The notes under the pieces were generated by a model. That model was not told where the DNA came from and searched no databases. It saw nothing but the letters and a program-made list of their open reading frames with translations. This document shows positions 38,429 through 57,405 of a stretch of 64,000 nucleotides of DNA, in pieces. The stretch comes from a virus. The stretch's first letter is position 1, and every line of letters starts with the position of its first letter. The stretch lies in IMG/VR virus record IMGVR_UViG_3300005573_000055, positions 1 through 64,000 of that record, one strand, 5' to 3'. The position numbers and the translations under genes are program-made.

Positions 38429-39266
38429 TGAAATACATATTTACGTAGCCGTCATTTACATCAAAATGATATCCTTCCAGATATGCTTTCTTTTTTAGTT
38501 CTTCCGAGGCTAGTAAAACTTCTCTTAATAGCTTTTTATTACTGAGATATTGAGAGTATCCCATCATATTAATAGCCAATTCGGGCAGTGATATCTTTAT
38601 CATTTGTTTCTTATAGAGTTTCTTATCTAAGATACGATACAGCTTTTTAGCTGGTGCATATTCGATACTTCTATAAAATGGCCAGTCTAAAGGCTTAATA
38701 TTGCCCGAAGATATGGAAATCCACAGTGTATCACTCCAATGTACCTCAAGTATCTCCTTCTTTGAAAAAGCATCCTTCCTTTCAGTTACAAGCAAATCTA
38801 TCAAATGAAATTTCCTGCTTTCGTAGACATTCAAAGCCTTATTGAAAAAGCAGTCAGTCTCTATAAGTATTTTAGAGAGTCTGGTAAGGCATTCGTGTAT
38901 CTTTGCATAATAGTACCCTGATTTAGGCCATGAAAGTCTATCTAGAAGATCTGACATATTTTCTACAAGAACCACCTTAGAGACAAATCGTCTTTCATAG
39001 CTCAGTGAAAGCAAGGCAAGCAGTACATCTTCATCTTCGGGCAATATGCCTGGTAGAATCTTGCCAGAATGTTCTATACTATAAATTGTGACGTGTCCAT
39101 AGGCAAGTCTGCCTGTAAGTTTGTTCCAGTAGCTGATATTATAAGTTCTTTTGCTTGGAATTTCATTCCCCTTCTGACCATAAAACACCAAAGGCAACTC
39201 TATGAGATTAATCTCATCAAAGCTAAAGTGATGATTAATCTTTTGAGTTATCCACATTATAAACAT
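38394..39266 (-). CDS. repA: Plasmid-type replication initiator protein A (RPA family)
   Basis: DEINLIELPL, LPEDEDVLLALL, LL..L.W..SG.YY..I..CL.RL and Y.....PAKKLYR.LDK motifs match replication initiator A proteins. True start may be 39257. Confidence 0.8.
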   Translation of the reverse strand: MFIMWITQKINHHFSFDEINLIELPLVFYGQKGNEIPSKRTYNISYWNKLTGRLAYGHVTIYSIEHSGKILPGILPEDEDVLLALLSLSYERRFVSKVVLVENMSDLLDRLSWPKSGYYYAKIHECLTRLSKILIETDCFFNKALNVYESRKFHLIDLLVTERKDAFSKKEILEVHWSDTLWISISSGNIKPLDWPFYRSIEYAPAKKLYRILDKKLYKKQMIKISLPELAINMMGYSQYLSNKKLLREVLLASEELKKKAYLEGYHFDVNDGYVNMYFIKRLKSQDVSV

Positions 39267-39506
39267 CCTTATTTAAACTATTAACTCTATTTAAACACCT
39301 ATACCGCAGCAAAATCTTTGATTTTACCTTAAAATCAAAGGAATTCTCACTTTGAGGCACAACTTTTTACGAAAAATCAGCCTTTAATGCCGAAACATAG
39401 GTGATTTTTGACTTAACAAATGTAAGATAATTCCGACAGATAGTCAATATCTGTCCGACAAATTAACATTGCAATGTGGATAACTCAAATTAAGTTTGTC
39501 AGACAA
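39242..39506. promoter_or_regulatory. Putative replication origin with two DnaA boxes in a 17 bp inverted repeat
   Basis: TTATCCACA at 39248-39256 and TGTGGATAA at 39475-39483 lie within the perfect IR tttgagttatccacatt/aatgtggataactcaaa. There is an 11 bp IR at 39316-39340, two TCCGACA repeats and an AT-rich interior. Confidence 0.7.
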
Positions 39507-48667: not shown

Positions 48668-48925
48668 TTAGTTTACTTGTTCCATGTTTCTATCTAAGAT
48701 TTCCTTTACTTTAGCTTCTATGTCTTCGATTGTAATTCCAAGTTTATCCATTAAGATTAAATATATGGCTTCTGTATTTAGAAGAGCTGTTTGTGTGCCA
48801 TGATTTATTCTTTGAACTTCTTCCCGAAGAGTAATGAAGTCTTTTGCAATAGCGCGCATTAACTCTTCAAAGCCTTCTGAACTGCCTTGTTTGTTTAAGT
48901 CGTCTAAAGTGATAATCTTAGCCAT
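48668..48925 (-). CDS. Hypothetical protein
   Basis: 85 aa with AAGGAG RBS. Confidence 0.6.
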   Translation of the reverse strand: MAKIITLDDLNKQGSSEGFEELMRAIAKDFITLREEVQRINHGTQTALLNTEAIYLILMDKLGITIEDIEAKVKEILDRNMEQVN

Positions 48926-48961
48926 TCTTTCTCCTTGTGATTGGTGGTTGTGTGTGGTCTT

Positions 48962-50017
48962 TTAAAGTTGAACGAACTTAATTAACTCAACAGGGTTACT
49001 TTTATGAACTACTATAATGGTTTGTTCAGAATAACCTTCTGGTATAAGCAGGCTTCTTGCAAATTGGTCTTGAGCAAGGAAAGAACCATTTCTAATTACT
49101 CGTGCCTTGCCCGCAGTGACAACCATTGTGTCATGAAAGTGCCCTGTAAGTATAACATCTACTTTATCGGAAAGTGCCAGTCCCAAGATGGAAACCTTTG
49201 ATGTTGGTGTATAGAGATTCCTTTTCATCTCATGAATAGCACCAAAGTTCCATCCTTTGACATTAAAGACTATGTCAGGTTTTTCTGTGGCATATTGGAT
49301 ATCAACATTTTTGATATCATTGTAATTCTGCTTGGCAAATTCGATCATTTTCTCAAGCAGAATGTAAACCTGTGTATCATAATTGTCTTTAATGGGATGG
49401 AACAGTTTTTCCTGGGTGCGGCTTTGGCCGTGATTGCCTGGCACTCCATAGATGCGTATTTTGCAATGTGGAAACAGCCTTTGCAGTTTAATGATATTAC
49501 GCAGAAAGCAATCCACAGAGGCCATGATTTGGGAGACAATACTTTCTTCAATCATGGCCTTCTGGAAACTAAATATGCTGCCGTCTCCTTCGAGTAAGTC
49601 TCCGCCAAAAACTACAACAACTTCATCGAAAGCTTGTTCTCCTAAGAACTTAATTGTAAGAATCGCATTGTCGAATAAACTATCGACTAAAGTTCGTGCT
49701 TTTTCTATATCAAAGATGATTGTGCCGTTCTTCTCAAATACTTTGCCGAAATGCACATCAAATATGTTTATTATTAAAGCACGCTTATCTATATCGGTTT
49801 CGGAGTAGTTTTTTGGCGGTCTGCCTCGTCTTTTCTTTGCTTGTATTTGCAACTCTTCGCTAAGGCTTTCTATGGACTCCAGTATAGCACTCTTGATGTG
49901 GTGTTTTAAGAGTGCTCTTTCTTTATAGCCAAGGTTTTTGGCTTTCTCGTCCAGTAAATTTATAAGCCTTATGTCGTTGCCATTTACAGAGAATTTCTGC
50001 CTTAGAGCTTTTCTCAT
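48962..50017 (-). CDS. Calcineurin-like metallophosphoesterase with AT-hook
   Basis: DVHFG, GDLLEG, GNHG, IH and GHFH motifs; KRRGRPPK AT-hook. Confidence 0.85.
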   Translation of the reverse strand: MRKALRQKFSVNGNDIRLINLLDEKAKNLGYKERALLKHHIKSAILESIESLSEELQIQAKKRRGRPPKNYSETDIDKRALIINIFDVHFGKVFEKNGTIIFDIEKARTLVDSLFDNAILTIKFLGEQAFDEVVVVFGGDLLEGDGSIFSFQKAMIEESIVSQIMASVDCFLRNIIKLQRLFPHCKIRIYGVPGNHGQSRTQEKLFHPIKDNYDTQVYILLEKMIEFAKQNYNDIKNVDIQYATEKPDIVFNVKGWNFGAIHEMKRNLYTPTSKVSILGLALSDKVDVILTGHFHDTMVVTAGKARVIRNGSFLAQDQFARSLLIPEGYSEQTIIVVHKSNPVELIKFVQL

Positions 50018-50049
50018 TCTTCTGCCTCGACTTGTGTGTGTGTAAATTT

Positions 50050-52401
50050 CTATCGCACACGAGCTACTATGTAGCCTTCATCTGTGCGGATTTTAAGTAT
50101 GAGCGGATCATAACTGTCTGTCTCCATGACTTTGTGTAATACTTTATCGAAATCTCTTCTTAGTTGATCTATAGAGATTATCATCTCTCTTGGAAATTGT
50201 GTCTTTCTTGTACCTGATGACAATACTTTCAAATCTTCAACTGCATAGCTATCCTTGAACCGTCTGTACTTGATGCCTATAAGCTTATTGTAATAGTGAA
50301 GCTTGAATTTGTCTGCTTTTAGTTTTTCATACACATTGTTAAATACAAATAATGTGATAGGATCTTGCTGATAAATGCTCCTAAAAAGCAGTGTTAGACC
50401 ACGACCATTCTTGAATTTCTTGTGTGATACTATGAATCCTACAGTACAGAGATATCTTTTATCTTTGTCAGATAGAAATTCTTCTATCTCTTTGCGATAT
50501 ACATCCCCCAACGTTGATGTAAACCACATGTTGGTTACTTCGTATTCAAAATCTAGACGTTTCTCAATAGGATAATCAAACTCAAGCGGTACATCGAGTA
50601 TTTCATCGTGCTTTGGTATTCTAAAAAGGTAGTCTTTTTCTCTAAGTAGATGTACAGCTTCGCTTAGATATTCTATAAACGAAAGATCATTTTCTACATG
50701 TAATAGCTGTGCGCGTGTTAAGAACCGCTCTAAACACCCAGCCTTTGCCAATGCTGTTAGGCTATTTGTCTTGATGCCAGTTCTTATAATTAAATCACTT
50801 AAAGACTTAAAAGGTCCACCTTTTTGTCTTTGCTCGAGCAGAACTTGAGCATCTGAACCTAGACCTTTAATGCCGCTTAGTCCAAACCTAATTCTATTGT
50901 GGCCTACAACTGTAAATTCAGTTTCCGATTCGTTAACATCGGGCGGATAAACTTCTATACCAAAATTGCGTGCTTCATATATGAACTCTGTCATCTTTTG
51001 GAGGTCATTGCTTTCAAATATCAAGTTAGCTGCATAGAACTCATCTGTGTAATGTGCTTTAAGATACGCAGTCTTTGCTGTGATAATTGAGTAAGATACA
51101 GCATGACTTAAATTGAAAGCATAAGCACTGAATGATTCCATTTCATTCCACAGCTGATCTATTTCCTCCTCCGTCATGCCAATCTGCATAGCTTTATCTC
51201 TAAAGCGTTCCTTTTCCTTTACCATCTTTGCTTTCTGCTTTTTGGCAACGATCTTACGAAACTCATCTGCCTCCTGGTCACTATAGCCTGCTATAAGCTG
51301 AACTGTTTTTTGGATTTGCTCTTGGTAGATAAAATATCCGTATGTACTTTGTAAAACGCTTTTCAAGACTGGGAATCGTTCAGCTTGCGGAATTATATCA
51401 GGCTTTTGATTATTGCGGATTTTGAGTATACTGAACAGAAAATCCATCGGGCCTGGTCTAAAGCCTGCTGAGATGAGTACTATGTCAGAAAACTGCTTTG
51501 GCTTAAATTGCTTGATAAACTTTGTTATGCTATCACCTTCAAACTGAAATATTCCAAGCAGATTGCCTGATGATATTAGTTCATATGACTCAGAGTCGTT
51601 GATTGGTATATCTTCTAGTGAAAGCTTGATACCATGGTTTTTCTCTATAAGTTTTAATGTTTTCTCTATAACAGACAATGTCTTAAGGGCCAGCATATCG
51701 ACTTTGAGAAATCCCAAAGCTTCCACTTCATTCATATCACATTCGGTAATGATTTCACCTTCGCTTTCCCAGATGGGAATTGTCTCATAAAGCGGCTCGT
51801 TTGATATAATTATACCTGCAGCATGTGTAGAGCGCGATGATATCAAGCCCTCCATTTTGCGAGCAAGATCGATAACTCTCTTAGCATTACTGTCTTTCTC
51901 ATAGATGGTCTTGAAATCTTCATTCAAAGAAAGAAGACTGTCTATGGTCCAATTTGTTCCCTGCACAGGATCAGGAACCATATTTGCGAGCTTGTCAATA
52001 AAGTCAAATTCATATCCTAAAGCCTTGCCAACATATCTGATTGCTGACTTAGCATACATCCTATTGAATGTCCCTATCCTTGCAACATGAGAAGGACCAT
52101 ATTTATTCTTGATGTAAGAAACAACCTCATCACGTTTATCTTTGTCGAAATCTATGTCTATATCTGGAGATGTGCCACCTATATATTTTGGCAGACCAGT
52201 TGGCTTCTCATCCGTAATTCCTATAAGATAAGCTATAGTAGAATTTTGGTCGTTGGTAACCTTGATGCCTTTCTTTTTTAATGCAAGAAAGTAACCTTCC
52301 ATGTTGTATATTTCAACAGCACCTATTTCTTTCCTAAAAGCTGCATAGTCTATCTCACTGAGTCTGCTGCTGCTTAGACAAAGTTCTCTTAGTGTTCCCA
52401 T
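50050..52401 (-). CDS. dnaE: DNA polymerase III alpha, C-terminal part (catalytic palm, thumb, fingers, HhH)
   Basis: SPDIDIDF, STHAAGI, GFLKVDMLALKTL, GIFQFE, YQEQ, YAFNLSHAVSY, PPDVNES and IRFGLSGIKGLG. Confidence 0.93.
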   Translation of the reverse strand: MGTLRELCLSSSRLSEIDYAAFRKEIGAVEIYNMEGYFLALKKKGIKVTNDQNSTIAYLIGITDEKPTGLPKYIGGTSPDIDIDFDKDKRDEVVSYIKNKYGPSHVARIGTFNRMYAKSAIRYVGKALGYEFDFIDKLANMVPDPVQGTNWTIDSLLSLNEDFKTIYEKDSNAKRVIDLARKMEGLISSRSTHAAGIIISNEPLYETIPIWESEGEIITECDMNEVEALGFLKVDMLALKTLSVIEKTLKLIEKNHGIKLSLEDIPINDSESYELISSGNLLGIFQFEGDSITKFIKQFKPKQFSDIVLISAGFRPGPMDFLFSILKIRNNQKPDIIPQAERFPVLKSVLQSTYGYFIYQEQIQKTVQLIAGYSDQEADEFRKIVAKKQKAKMVKEKERFRDKAMQIGMTEEEIDQLWNEMESFSAYAFNLSHAVSYSIITAKTAYLKAHYTDEFYAANLIFESNDLQKMTEFIYEARNFGIEVYPPDVNESETEFTVVGHNRIRFGLSGIKGLGSDAQVLLEQRQKGGPFKSLSDLIIRTGIKTNSLTALAKAGCLERFLTRAQLLHVENDLSFIEYLSEAVHLLREKDYLFRIPKHDEILDVPLEFDYPIEKRLDFEYEVTNMWFTSTLGDVYRKEIEEFLSDKDKRYLCTVGFIVSHKKFKNGRGLTLLFRSIYQQDPITLFVFNNVYEKLKADKFKLHYYNKLIGIKYRRFKDSYAVEDLKVLSSGTRKTQFPREMIISIDQLRRDFDKVLHKVMETDSYDPLILKIRTDEGYIVARVR

Positions 52402-52582
52402 AGTAATGTTCCGTAGTTTGACTGCGTCTGTTGGCTAATTCAGATATGGGCAAGTTTGAAAGTGATATATGTGATACTGACATGAGTGCAAATATCCATG
52501 TAAAGATGGAGTTGTCTTTATAGCCCGTAAATATATATTTTAACTCTGGGTTGTTGCCTGTAAGCCTGATTGCATTTGACAT
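52355..52582 (-). CDS. Small ORF bridging the two dnaE parts
   Basis: 75 aa, GAGG 7 nt before ATG, overlaps both dnaE ORFs in another frame. Confidence 0.35.
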   Translation of the reverse strand: MSNAIRLTGNNPELKYIFTGYKDNSIFTWIFALMSVSHISLSNLPISELANRRSQTTEHYYGNTKRTLSKQQQTQ

Positions 52583-53880
52583 TGTTCAGCCTCATATATT
52601 TCATATGGATATTCTTTGAAGCTAATAACTGGTTTGGCAGCTCTGCCTTTATTTAGAAATCTTGCAAATGACAAATCGTAATCCAGTGGGTTGACATCTG
52701 TAATACCTAAGGCATATGAGATAAGACATCCAGCTGCGCTTCCACGTCCTGGCCCTACGAGGATTCCATTGCTTTTGGCCCACAAGACATAATCTTGCAC
52801 TATCAAAAAGTATCCAGCATATCCAGTCTGCTCAATTGTCTTAAGCTCCATCTCGATGCGATCATATATCTTCTTGTCTATGCTCTTGCCAAACCTTCTT
52901 CGCAAACCTTCAAAGACCAGCTTACGTAAAACAACATCCTCCTTGTCGGAAGGATAAAGCTGCGGAAGCCTATTTTTGCCCATCTCTATATTGACATTAC
53001 AACGTTCGGCTATTTCAAGAGTGTTATCTATGGCTTCCTTAAAACCCGAAAATCTTTCGAGCATATCTTTATAGCTGTATAAATGATATCCATTGCCTGG
53101 ATATTTAATGTTTTGCATTTTTGGATCACTAAGTGTAATATTATCTCTTATAGCAAGCATGATATCGTGGGCCAGCACATCTTCTTTTTCGATGAAATGA
53201 GTATCTGATGTAGCTACCAGCTTAATACCATACTTCTTTGCCAAAGAAGGAAGACTATCAAGAAGTATTGAGTCTTCTATCGTATTGTGATTTTGAATTT
53301 CAATGTAAAAACGATCACCAAAGATTTTCTTATGCCACGAGATAATCTCTTCTGGATCTTCCAAGACATTTTCCTGATGATTGCATTCTATATTGCTAAA
53401 ATCCCCATCCTGGTTGAAACTTTTCTCAATGCCATGCTTCTTTAAAATAGCCGAAGCCAAAGCACCACCTGCACAGCCAGAAAGACATATTAAGCCTTCG
53501 TTATACATTCTGAGAAGTTCACGATCTATTCTGGGCTTGTAATAAAAATGGTCTTTGTTGTAGCTTAAACTTACAAGCTTAATCAAATTACGCCAGCCTT
53601 GGTTATTCATAGCAAGCAGTGTAATATGTGTATATTTGTCTACACCTGGCTGTTTGTCAAACCTCGAACGAGTTGCCATATAGGCCTCTACGCCAGCAAT
53701 AGGTTTAATACCATACTCCTTGGCATATTTAAATAATGATATAACACCGCCAAGTGTTCCATGATCTGTAAGAGCTATTGCTGGAAGACCATAGGCTTTT
53801 GTTTTATCCATAAGCTCATCTATCTTGCAAATACCGTCTCTTATAGAAAATATCGAGTGCAGATGAAGCGGGGCATACAT
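52540..53880 (-). CDS. dnaE: DNA polymerase III alpha, N-terminal part (PHP domain and start of palm)
   Basis: HLHSIFSIRDG, ALTDHG, GIKPIAGVEAY, FYYKPRID, ATSDTH, GPGRGSAAG and FARFLN. Confidence 0.93.
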   Translation of the reverse strand: MYAPLHLHSIFSIRDGICKIDELMDKTKAYGLPAIALTDHGTLGGVISLFKYAKEYGIKPIAGVEAYMATRSRFDKQPGVDKYTHITLLAMNNQGWRNLIKLVSLSYNKDHFYYKPRIDRELLRMYNEGLICLSGCAGGALASAILKKHGIEKSFNQDGDFSNIECNHQENVLEDPEEIISWHKKIFGDRFYIEIQNHNTIEDSILLDSLPSLAKKYGIKLVATSDTHFIEKEDVLAHDIMLAIRDNITLSDPKMQNIKYPGNGYHLYSYKDMLERFSGFKEAIDNTLEIAERCNVNIEMGKNRLPQLYPSDKEDVVLRKLVFEGLRRRFGKSIDKKIYDRIEMELKTIEQTGYAGYFLIVQDYVLWAKSNGILVGPGRGSAAGCLISYALGITDVNPLDYDLSFARFLNKGRAAKPVISFKEYPYEIYEAEQCQMQSGLQATTQS

Positions 53881-55025: not shown

Positions 55026-55066
55026 ACCTCAGAGTGTGTGTGTGTGTGATTTGCACTGGTCTTTTG

Positions 55067-56140
55067 CTATTCTGCCTGTGATAGTGCTTGTGTGGTTAGT
55101 TCTTCAGTGCAAAATACTTTTTCTACTTCAGATTCTATAGCTTGTAAGAGTTCTGGCTTCTCTTTCAGAGTCAATCGGCAGTTCTCCAAGCCTTGACCTA
55201 TTTTCTCATCGCCAAAAGAAAGCCAACTACCGGATTTCTTAACTATATCTGCCTGTATAGCCAAGTTGAGAATATCCATCTCTCTTGAAAAACCTTCTCC
55301 CGGGTAGAGAAATAGATTAGCAAAGAGATAAGGCTTAGCAGTTTTATTCTTTGTTGCTGTAACACGTACTTCTTCGCCGATATACTGATCACCACGTTGG
55401 ATCTTACCGCCTTTTGTCTTAGAAAGCTCTAAAGCTACATGAGCATAAAACTTCATAGCATTGCCGCCTGTAAAAGTCTTAGAACCAACCATTGAAGCCA
55501 GATTAGCTCTCAGCTGGTTGATGTAGATAATGGATATTCTGTTTTTTCTTGCAAGAGCAGTTACCTTACTGAAATGCCCCGACAATAGCCTTGCAACGCT
55601 TGCTATGCCGGGACTTTCTTCAGCATATTTATCCTGCTGATCTACTGTCGATAAAGCGGCTACCGAGTCTAAAACTATCAGGTTAACAGAGTTGTTTTCT
55701 ACCAGCGCCTGAATGATATTTAACGCCTCTTCGGCGGATTCTGGTACACTGACAGTGAAACTCTTATCTTTACAATCTACCTTAATACCATAAGCTTTTT
55801 CTACATATGCGCTATCAAAAGAACCTTCTCGATCAATCCAGTGGACAGCACCTCCTGCTTTAAGCACGTGAGATGCTATTACATAAGCTAAAGCTGATTT
55901 TCCAAGAGATTCATATCCATATAGATTTACTATACAGCCAAGTGGAAAACCTGCTTTTTCGCCGTAGTGATATCCAGATAGCACAAAGTTCAAGGAAGGA
56001 AGACTTAGCTTTAGGCGTTCTGTCTTTAAAAGACCATCTTGAGGATCGATAAAGATATTCTTTCTTTTGTAATAAGCAGCAAGAGAAGCCTCAGCTAAAT
56101 CTATCTTCTTTGGATCAAAAGTTAATTTCTTCTCTTCCAT
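55067..56140 (-). CDS. recA: RecA recombinase
   Basis: Walker A GYESLGKS, IVLDSVAAL, INQLR, GGNAMKFYA, KNK and KSGSW..GQG.EN. Start is ATG 56140 with AGGAG RBS. Confidence 0.95.
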   Translation of the reverse strand: MEEKKLTFDPKKIDLAEASLAAYYKRKNIFIDPQDGLLKTERLKLSLPSLNFVLSGYHYGEKAGFPLGCIVNLYGYESLGKSALAYVIASHVLKAGGAVHWIDREGSFDSAYVEKAYGIKVDCKDKSFTVSVPESAEEALNIIQALVENNSVNLIVLDSVAALSTVDQQDKYAEESPGIASVARLLSGHFSKVTALARKNRISIIYINQLRANLASMVGSKTFTGGNAMKFYAHVALELSKTKGGKIQRGDQYIGEEVRVTATKNKTAKPYLFANLFLYPGEGFSREMDILNLAIQADIVKKSGSWLSFGDEKIGQGLENCRLTLKEKPELLQAIESEVEKVFCTEELTTQALSQAE

Positions 56141-56231
56141 GTATATACTCCTAAAATGTGCGCTCGTGTGTGTGTTAAAAAATCCCCCTTGTTTTTTTAT
56201 ATATAAATAACTATCAATATGTTTTAACAAT

Positions 56232-56273
56232 TAAAAAAAAATAAAATGTGGTGTAAGATTGCTCCTACACCAC
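56232..56273 (-). terminator. Intrinsic terminator closing the nrdJ-recA intergenic transcript
   Basis: Minus strand gtggtgtagga-GCAA-tcttacaccac followed by a T-rich tract (attttatttttttt). Confidence 0.8.
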
Positions 56274-57160
56274 TCTGAGGATGACCACCACACACACCTC
56301 ACAAGGCAGACTTTTCAAGAAATAGCTAGTAGTTATGCAGCCTTTGGTGTTATGATGGTTCTGTACTCATACTTTGACAAACTCTAGTGAGACCTACACT
56401 AGAGGTGCTCGGACCTCATGTCGCCCCTTGAAGGCCCATCGTTACACCAGGTCCATCGAGAGCTAAACAATGTTTAGCTCTCAGGTCTCAAAGACTAGAC
56501 TTTCGTCTAGCTATAAACTTTAATAAACTGATTTTTTTTCTATAAATAGTAATATTTCGTAATAAGCTAACTCTAGATTGATCCTATGAAATGGATTTTA
56601 TCCAGAGCTAGCTTTACGAAATATTACTTGTCTTTAAAACTTTGGCATATAGGTGGTATTAACAATTGTCTTTATACAATACAATGTACCATTACAATGT
56701 ATTAAACACTTGTGAACAATAAGTGCCAGAAGAGAAATTCTGTTTAAGAACAAACCACCTGTTTCAAAACATAGCCTTCCGACTATGTTTAACTCACAGA
56801 TTGATTAAAACTTTAGGCTCGGAGAGCCTTAAGCCTTCAAGCATGTTGTGCTACAAAGTAATACAACTCGAAGATAAAGCTTGTCTTTCGACAAGTAAAG
56901 CTAAAACTAAAACTTTGGTTCGGTCAACCGAACCAAAGCCCATTCGCCGATCCGGCTGAGTTGGGCTTCTCACGCGTAACAATAACAACGTTTTGTTACG
57001 CGATATACATAGACCTTATCTTTCGATAAGCCAAAACTTCATATTAGCAAAGAGAAGAACTTTGCCTTAAACCTTATCCACACAAAAACCTTTTCTTCTA
57101 CTTATCGAAGTCGTCACTAAAGTCAGCATATCAATATAGTCCTTCGATAAGCACCAAAGA
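56232..57160 (-). ncRNA. Putative large (~900 nt) structured non-coding RNA, family unassigned
   Basis: No credible ORF and more than 12 hairpins. Five minus-strand GNRA tetraloops, G-U wobbles mostly favouring the minus strand, a possible pseudoknot and a terminal terminator. Confidence 0.65.
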
Positions 57161-57400
57161 TATGATTTAGCTAAAAGCATATCTAGATAGATAATCTATA
57201 TAGCTAATAGCTATCATCAAAGATTATCTAATCTAGATATGCTTAGCTATATTGATATCCATATCATATAGATATGTATAGCAAGTATATCATCTAGTAT
57301 AGATATGCTATATCCCATGTGGATCTATCTAGCTATATGATATCTATATAGATAGTCTATCTATGATATGCTTATCTATATAGATATATATATCTAGGAA
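57160..57400. repeat. AT-rich low-complexity palindromic region (TAGATA/TATCTA units)
   Basis: Long imperfect hairpin 57168-57249, nested TATCTATATAGATA palindromes, a perfect DnaA box at 57074-57082 and an 8/9 box at 57406-57414. Confidence 0.7.
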
Positions 57401-57405
57401 ATCTC

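Follow-up and report, generated by a model that had tools for sequence, protein, structure and literature searches.

A structured, modular non-coding locus between nrdJ and recA in an uncultured phage genome

The gap between nrdJ and recA

The IMG/VR record IMGVR_UViG_3300005573_000055 is a linear sequence of 155,523 bp from an uncultured phage (37.5% GC; estimated completeness 88%), and its bases 1-64000 constitute the window analysed here. Genes in the window lie on the plus strand over 1-38 kb and on the minus strand over 38-64 kb, the latter part including a replication block with a primase-helicase, a split DnaE, two small conserved genes, recA and nrdJ. We examined the gene-free gap between nrdJ and recA (56141-57405), whose hairpin-rich core had been proposed, in an earlier note made from the sequence alone, to be a discrete large non-coding RNA. 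As that note had stated, this is the largest non-coding gap of a tightly packed genome: with 1265 nt it is the longest stretch of the record free of open reading frames (ORFs), and the second-longest internal gap measures 459 nt. The flanking genes and the divisions of the gap are as follows.

57406-60234, minus strand: nrdJ, encoding a class II ribonucleotide reductase of 942 amino acids (aa), the upstream flank of the gap (Pfam Ribonuc_red_lgC 3e-128, Ribonuc_red_2_N and TSCPD)
57161-57405, no strand assigned: nested palindrome array of 26-29% GC; one palindrome spans 82 nt (57168-57249), and another, TATCTATATAGATA of 14 bp, is present twice (57341-57354 and 57373-57386)
56232 to about 57150, minus strand: the hairpin-rich core
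56141-56231, minus strand: upstream region of recA, AT-rich at first, followed by ACACACACACG, a (CA)n motif (56174-56164), and by AGGAG as ribosome-binding site
55067-56140, minus strand: recA (357 aa), the downstream flank of the gap (Pfam RecA 2e-44 and RecA_C 9e-19; full-length alignment to relatives)

The gap is non-coding. Its longest frame has 78 codons under the standard code, and frames reach just 89-129 codons when TAG, TGA or TAA is reassigned singly, so a recoded gene was rejected for want of a long frame under any stop-codon reassignment. The small ORFs of the gap had no match in Pfam or PHROG. When 262 small ORFs of relatives were compared with the gap by tblastn, the matches stayed at chance level (best E 0.002 at 20.8 bits, all others at least 0.06), and the reading of the gap as a decayed gene was rejected because no remnants of the relatives' small genes were found. 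The start codon of recA was placed at ATG 56140 rather than at TTG 56230. A group I or group II intron was also rejected, because the flanking nrdJ and recA are both complete when set against the genes of relatives, and no Intron_gpI or Intron_gpII match appeared at E values up to 10. Moreover, no exon is missing from nrdJ, since its 942 aa fall within the 908-971 aa of its relatives.

The earlier note had been unable to match the region to a known RNA family by eye, and database searches led to the same result. Rfam 15 yielded no match at gathering scores in the 64-kb window, where the models of GOLLD, ROOL and OLE stayed below their gathering scores as well. Searching the gap at E values up to 10 returned only spurious microRNA-type matches in AT palindromes (14-25 bits, where 45-113 are required), and the corresponding loci of relatives gave no Rfam match. 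ARAGORN detected neither tRNA nor tmRNA in the window or in the whole 155-kb genome.

We then compared the folding of the 929-nt core with that of shuffled sequences (20 shuffles per strand). The minimum free energy (MFE) of the minus strand was -317.3 kcal/mol against -225.8 +/- 7.4 for its shuffles (z -12.4), and that of the plus strand was -271.3 against -184.5 +/- 8.4 kcal/mol (z -10.4), whereas a control of equal length from the nrdJ coding sequence reached z -2.3. The better-than-shuffled folding expected of a structured RNA is thus present. In a genome-wide MFE scan with 200-nt windows, only two 1-kb zones had a mean GC-corrected score below -2.2, and the gap is one of them. The second zone (103-110 kb) is GC-rich coding sequence; the "structured" flag that the scan gave to 100-110 kb was set aside, as the higher GC of this coding stretch probably produces an artefact of the GC regression.

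Modules, terminators and strand of the core

Some 20 local hairpins follow one another in the core, which resolves into five tandem modules starting at 57046, 56921, 56819, 56648 and 56526 (alignment A2). Each module opens with the sequence AAGUUU(U)(A), and in four of the five a small C(GAAA)G or C(GGAA)G hairpin comes next. Read along the minus strand, the features of the core are the following, where R1 denotes a covariance model of the module unit.

57101-57150, minus strand: first core hairpin, with 10-bp arms CUUAUCGAAG and CUUCGAUAAG and a 30-nt loop (local folds); it belongs to a cluster of CTTATC/GATAAG hexamers
56922-57046, minus strand: module 1, with AAGUUUU, a C(GAAA)G hairpin at 57030-57015 and hairpins at 57002-56973, 56969-56935 and 56938-56913 (alignment A2; R1, 42 bits; folds)
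56910-56941, minus strand: boundary of modules 1 and 2, a terminator-like hairpin of 14 pairs followed by UUUUAGUUUUAG
56820-56921, minus strand: module 2, with CCAAAGUUUUA, a C(GAAA)G hairpin at 56895-56880 and two more hairpins (R1, 55 bits; alignment A2; folds)
56649-56819, minus strand: module 3, with CUAAAGUUUUA, a C(GGAA)G hairpin at 56790-56767 and a three-hairpin domain at 56760-56650 closed by GGUGGU/ACCACC (R1, 45 bits; alignment A2; folds)
56527-56648, minus strand: module 4, with CCAAAGUUUUA and then an 80-100-nt hairpin at 56628-56548 that has a perfect 15-bp base (R1, 49 bits; alignment A2; folds)
56274-56526, minus strand: module 5 and 3' domain, with AAAGUUU and then, in turn, a C(GAAA)G hairpin (56511-56494), a multibranch domain (56490-56383) and a segment rich in GU (56310-56290); R1, 48 bits; alignment A2; folds
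56232-56273, minus strand: strong intrinsic terminator with an 11-pair stem (56273-56248), a GCAA loop and a U-rich tail, the putative 3' end of the RNA

Every hairpin singled out in the earlier note was found again, including the three C(GAAA)G hairpins (57015-57030, 56880-56895 and 56494-56511), the C(GGAA)G hairpin with its U·G pair (56767-56790), the perfect 15-bp base (56548-56562/56614-56628), the stems at 56458-56482, 56913-56938, 56973-57002 and 57101-57150, and the GCAA-capped terminator at 56273-56248 with a T run after it. The tail of this terminator begins with AUUUUAUUUU, its U-rich run extends to 56232, and it qualifies as rho-independent. Three module ends consist of a stem followed by AAAGUUUUA, and one of them also scores as a terminator. 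The 3' domain is richer in GC than the rest (0.455 at 56300-56499).

Some of these features are peculiar to the gap. C(GAAA)G hairpins whose stem has at least 6 bp number three in the entire genome, both strands counted, and all three lie in the gap; the three genomic copies of CYAAAGUUUUA all lie in this region as well. Model R1, run over 210 kb from the phage and its relatives, matched only the five copies on which it had been trained. Among the paralogous GNRA hairpins, pairing is kept through double-sided changes in four of six pairs, a result matched by 1 of 500 shuffles.

The strand could be judged from loops and terminators. Five of the eight tetraloops of the core on the minus strand are GNRA, versus none of seven on the plus strand. 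For comparison, GNRA loops make up 3/3 sense versus 0/3 antisense tetraloops in one of two analogous elements of relatives (described below) and 1/5 versus 0/6 in the other, and 1/10 versus 0/10 in coding controls. Three terminator-like sites were found where 0.7 would be expected, all of them on the minus strand, the one that encodes nrdJ and recA. Because the GNRA bias and the terminators all point to the minus strand, its assignment as the functional strand is fairly secure, and to that extent the strand preferred in the earlier note is upheld.

The reading we favour, with a probability of roughly 0.55, is that the core is a minus-strand, terminator-bounded non-coding RNA locus whose hairpin modules are probably repeated protein-binding units; its transcription, 5' end and function are what we infer from the sequence. 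The core would be transcribed in the direction of nrdJ and recA, and its transcript would end at the terminator 56273-56248. The RNA would resemble beads on a string, that is, stable local hairpins arranged in five diverged tandem modules, each running from a single-stranded AAGUUU(U)(A) tract through a small C(GNRA)G hairpin (in four of five) to longer hairpins. The three junctions of a stem and AAAGUUUUA may be places of weak termination or of processing, which would yield nested or processed RNAs of 100-300 nt besides a transcript of about 0.9 kb. Its most likely action would be that of a multivalent protein-binding RNA, with the tract-plus-GNRA-hairpin unit as the recognition element, that titrates or scaffolds a phage or host RNA-binding factor in the replication phase.

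The discrete large RNA of the earlier note is retained here in so far as the region is non-coding and exceptionally structured, but not as a single ornate fold of the GOLLD or ROOL kind. When the pair span was restricted to 130 nt or less, -294 of the -317 kcal/mol was kept, so local hairpins account for about 93% of the folding energy, and the long-range helices are lost in the centroid structure. A single RNA of some 900 nt whose tertiary fold is global and defined, functionally analogous to GOLLD or ROOL, would suit the size and the phage context; its GNRA tetraloops could dock into receptors, and the unit is bounded by a terminator, as is an analogous element of a relative at both of its ends. 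We nevertheless consider it improbable, as the folding energy is nearly all local, the centroid lacks long-range helices, the hairpins belong to paralogous modules set in an array and not to one unique fold of several domains, Rfam gave no match even at E values up to 10, and there is no conservation with relatives. The structured non-coding locus is real and statistically extreme, belongs to no known family, and is modular rather than ornate.

Relatives and rival readings of the gap

Among 5.8 billion proteins, the RecA closest to that of this phage is 50% identical, and metagenome and genome scans for closer relatives retrieved only distant loci lacking big gaps. The sole other contig carrying this RecA, from JGI 3300027863, is 100% identical over 5074 nt, and within each of the lineages of two distant relatives, L016 and L027, the copies are likewise identical; since the only other copy of the gap is identical, it offers no covariation information. 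The gap itself had no blastn match in 50,697 phage records, scans of IMG/VR for exact occurrences of two distinctive 20-27-mers were negative, and neither blastn nor nhmmer detected any similarity between the gap and the loci of relatives.

Relatives share the gene order nrdJ ... recA, two small genes, dnaE-N, inserted genes and dnaE-C, and the contents of their nrdJ-recA interval vary: small ORFs, HSP20, or structured elements dissimilar to one another. In L027 (RecA 41% identical), a 745-nt ORF-free unit between nrdJ and recA is bounded by two sense-strand terminators (z -16.6 for the sense fold, -11.2 for the antisense fold); no palindrome array accompanies it. In L016 (RecA 44% identical), an element of about 580 nt upstream of recA consists of two units of about 258 nt, each with a CCCGAAAGGG hairpin and a cassette (z -15.8 sense and -7.0 antisense). 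The cassette, unique in the 3.2-Mb bin of L016, holds a sigma-70-like promoter scoring 10/12. Directly after the promoter-like cassette lies a 57-codon ORF with Cys and His residues (L016:5321-5494), which one gene caller called as a gene in the L018 copy, and at least one "module" of L016 might thus encode a micro-protein. Sequence comparison across the relatives points to recurrent analogous elements at a hypervariable site and not to a conserved family.

Such variability might suggest neutral or selfish DNA, namely a hypervariable site of moron insertion with locally duplicated palindromes, transcribed only as a long 3' untranslated region of nrdJ whose hairpins stabilise or insulate the mRNA. 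In line with this, the nrdJ-recA interval is highly variable among relatives, and other intergenic gaps of the genome are structured too, though less so (z -6.7 and -4.2). We regard this account as improbable: 1.2 kb of junk would be unusual in a tightly packed genome, GNRA loops are strongly over-represented, and comparably structured elements arose at the same place in three lineages. The modules, moreover, occur nowhere else in the genome, so they are not a spreading repeat.

The upstream part of the gap has a different character from the core. The block 57161-57405 folds equally on both strands (-81.6 and -84.4), contains no GNRA loops, and its palindromes are absent from the rest of the genome. 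It is probably a DNA-level protein-binding block, separate from the candidate RNA core, and not itself RNA. CTTATC/GATAAG hexamers number six in 57000-57405 against about 0.34 expected from the genome density of 0.84 per kb, an 18-fold enrichment. Close by lies a DnaA box.

57074-57082, plus strand: single perfect DnaA-box consensus TTATCCACA

The main rival reading, conceivable though unlikely, is that the whole gap is a replication or regulatory element acting as DNA, in which the palindrome or iteron array, the CTTATC sites and the DnaA box bind an initiator or regulator, and the hairpins extrude as single-stranded DNA (ssDNA) priming or primosome (ssi-like) signals or as an unwinding region. 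The gap does lie inside a replication module (nrdJ, recA, split dnaE, primase-helicase), its palindromes are unique and strand-symmetric, its hexamers are enriched, its DnaA box is perfect, its fold excess is equal on both strands and its stems are mostly perfect. Of the features of a DnaA/iteron-type origin, it has the AT-rich palindrome array and a single perfect DnaA box. The cumulative GC skew, however, has no inflection at 57 kb; it falls monotonically through 54-60 kb and has its extremes near 38 and 110 kb. A better candidate for a DnaA-type origin exists elsewhere: among the four perfect DnaA boxes of the genome, two are inverted, at 39248 (plus) and 39483 (minus), in the 39267-39506 gap about 1 kb from the strand switch and beside a weak local maximum of the cumulative GC skew at about 38 kb, which would make this site a more conventional candidate than the 57-kb gap. 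Furthermore, the GNRA-loop bias and the terminators are strand-specific, the small hairpins change in sequence but keep their pairing, unlike sites that are read as double-stranded sequence, and L027 has its structured unit without a palindrome array.

Several observations nonetheless weigh against the favoured reading of the core as a protein-binding RNA. Stability exceeds that of shuffles by nearly the same amount on the two strands (about -90 kcal/mol), and MFE by itself therefore does not decide between them; this near-equality, and the perfect Watson-Crick palindromes that make up most stems, are also compatible with a function as ssDNA or cruciform. The G-U pairs to which the earlier note had appealed are a weak guide: their counts favour the minus strand (37 versus 12), yet coding controls show similar asymmetries. 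The promoter search gave nothing convincing: its best sigma-70-like site, at 57323-57296, scores only 9/12, and promoter-like sites are not enriched; the Bacteroidota-type TAnnTTTG occurs once on the minus strand (57162-57155; about 0.75 expected by chance) with no proper -33 element, which is not significant. Some circularity attaches to the covariation of the paralogous hairpins, which had been selected for being hairpins. The elements of this phage, L016 and L027 share no detectable sequence, leaving their homology unproven, and several relatives have small ORFs or ordinary gaps (z -1.9 to -4.3) in place of such an element. Finally, Hirao et al. are said to have found C(GAAA)G mini-hairpins to be unusually stable in DNA as well, for which reason the choice of RNA over ssDNA is less secure than that of the strand.

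A retron-type reverse transcriptase (RT) gene on the same strand raises the question of whether the RNA of the gap is its partner or template. This orphan RT of 280 aa (63243-64085; L025:3244-4086, minus strand) overlaps an upstream ThiF/E1-JAB-E2 operon and is followed by genes for Zn-ribbon and Whirly-like proteins. It matches retron RT models at 4e-42 (PADLOC RT_III-A) and RVT_1 at 2e-18. No structured non-coding RNA adjoins it: on one side it overlaps the ThiF gene, the only gap nearby is coding (z -1.0), and Rfam detected nothing at 60-76 kb. The nrdJ-recA gap, for its part, has long msd-like hairpins such as 56548-56628. That it supplies a detached, unusually large multi-hairpin RNA resembling msr/msd is very improbable, as it is not adjacent to the RT, where a retron RNA would lie (mostly on the upstream side), but 5.8 kb downstream with seven genes between, global and local folds reveal no a1/a2-type terminal inverted repeat around an msr and msd pair, no Rfam retron msr matches, and L016 has an analogous element but no homologue in its 3.2-Mb bin when searched with this RT. 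It would be equally speculative to regard the hairpin array as the missing partner of an RT within a ubiquitin-like E1/E2/JAB operon, a detached giant multi-module template or scaffold, or, more broadly, to see a clade of 150-200-kb DnaE phages with lineage-specific, fast-evolving multi-hairpin RNA genes upstream of recA.

If the core is transcribed as we favour, it would be a phage locus for non-coding RNA of a new kind, in which GNRA-capped modules outside any Rfam family stand in tandem over about 0.9 kb. The comparably structured, internally repetitive elements upstream of recA in two distant relatives suggest that the replication module has repeatedly needed a structured nucleic acid, RNA or ssDNA. 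The locus could give access to new units of RNA-protein recognition or to RNAs that phages use for regulation or against their hosts. Should the region act as DNA instead, it would qualify as a possible origin of an unusual, hairpin-rich kind.

Phage context and comparison with known systems

Judged by its proteins, the lineage stands at a great distance from described phages, and none of the cultured phages encodes a RecA close to its own. Of eight large proteins searched against PHROG, the primase-helicase alone gave matches, and none of seven large plus-strand proteins (a presumed structural block, one of them 2505 aa) matched. A related 200-kb contig was binned with an Ignavibacteriae metagenome-assembled genome, which is a weak hint at the host.

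The two halves of DnaE are encoded on the minus strand by a PHP/N-terminal gene (52540-53880, 446 aa) and a C-terminal gene (50050-52401, 783 aa) separated by 138 nt. All relatives seen (L013, L016, L019 and L027) have the split as well, with 1-5 unrelated genes between the halves, so it is a family trait and not an assembly artefact. In addition, CA-repeat motifs resembling ACACACACG stand directly upstream of the ribosome-binding sites of replication genes (56164-56174, 55028-55048, 50033-50042 and 48949-48956, minus strand). In the distant relative L016, the motif CACGACACACGUA, related to ACACACACACG, precedes the recA region, and the related motif CACGACACACGYA recurs four times upstream of recA (L016:5122-5824). 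These motifs may be a family-wide promoter or leader element. Pairing of the GU-rich 3' segment of the core with CA-rich leaders of replication genes, as in targeting by a small RNA, was rejected as chance-like: the leaders of 48668-48925 (-36.4 kcal/mol) and 48962-50017 (-33.3 kcal/mol) rank second and third among 173 start regions, but internal coding controls reach -36.5 and shuffled segments -36.6.

Elsewhere in the genome, a stretch of about 10 kb at 100000-110500 (L026) with genes for SAVED, radical-SAM and AAA+ proteins has a GC of 0.46-0.51, far above average. Its intergenic cassettes repeat in the order GC hairpin, (CA)n CGCC, AATCGAACTA, and its gaps at 109987-110445 and 101239-101593 are those with z -6.7 and -4.2.

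GOLLD and ROOL are large ornate RNAs that form Rfam families, are often borne by phages or prophages and form homo-oligomeric assemblies (PMC12286853). The locus described here resembles them in being phage-encoded, non-coding, about 0.9 kb long and highly structured, with many GNRA-capped stems. In contrast to them, it has no covariance-model match, no tRNA neighbourhood and no known conserved homologues, and it is built of tandem local hairpin modules instead of a conserved multi-domain fold.

With retron msr-msd loci, the genome shares a retron-type RT on the same strand and, in the gap, long stable hairpins; the gap differs from them in lying 5.8 kb from the RT, in being 4-6 times longer than known retron RNAs, and in having neither an evident a1/a2 architecture in its folds nor an Rfam match. 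A further comparison is offered by the complementary-strand origins of phages G4 and phiX174, where hairpins for ssDNA priming include mini-hairpins of the d(C-GAAA-G) type. Here too, strand-specific and very stable GAAA-capped hairpins lie near replication genes and beside an AT-rich repeat block, whereas the region is far larger, belongs to a double-stranded DNA phage, has co-oriented terminators and shows no skew inflection.

Hairpins of the lambda nut/boxB type, and other short protein-binding RNA hairpins with a GNRA fold, have short stems of 5-7 bp and GNRA or GNRA-like loops, follow a conserved single-stranded tract and are repeated within one phage transcript. Here, by contrast, five copies stand within 0.9 kb with no genes between them, and neither a boxA-like element nor an N-like protein has been identified; like nut/boxB, the present locus repeats short GNRA-capped hairpins, each preceded by a tract.

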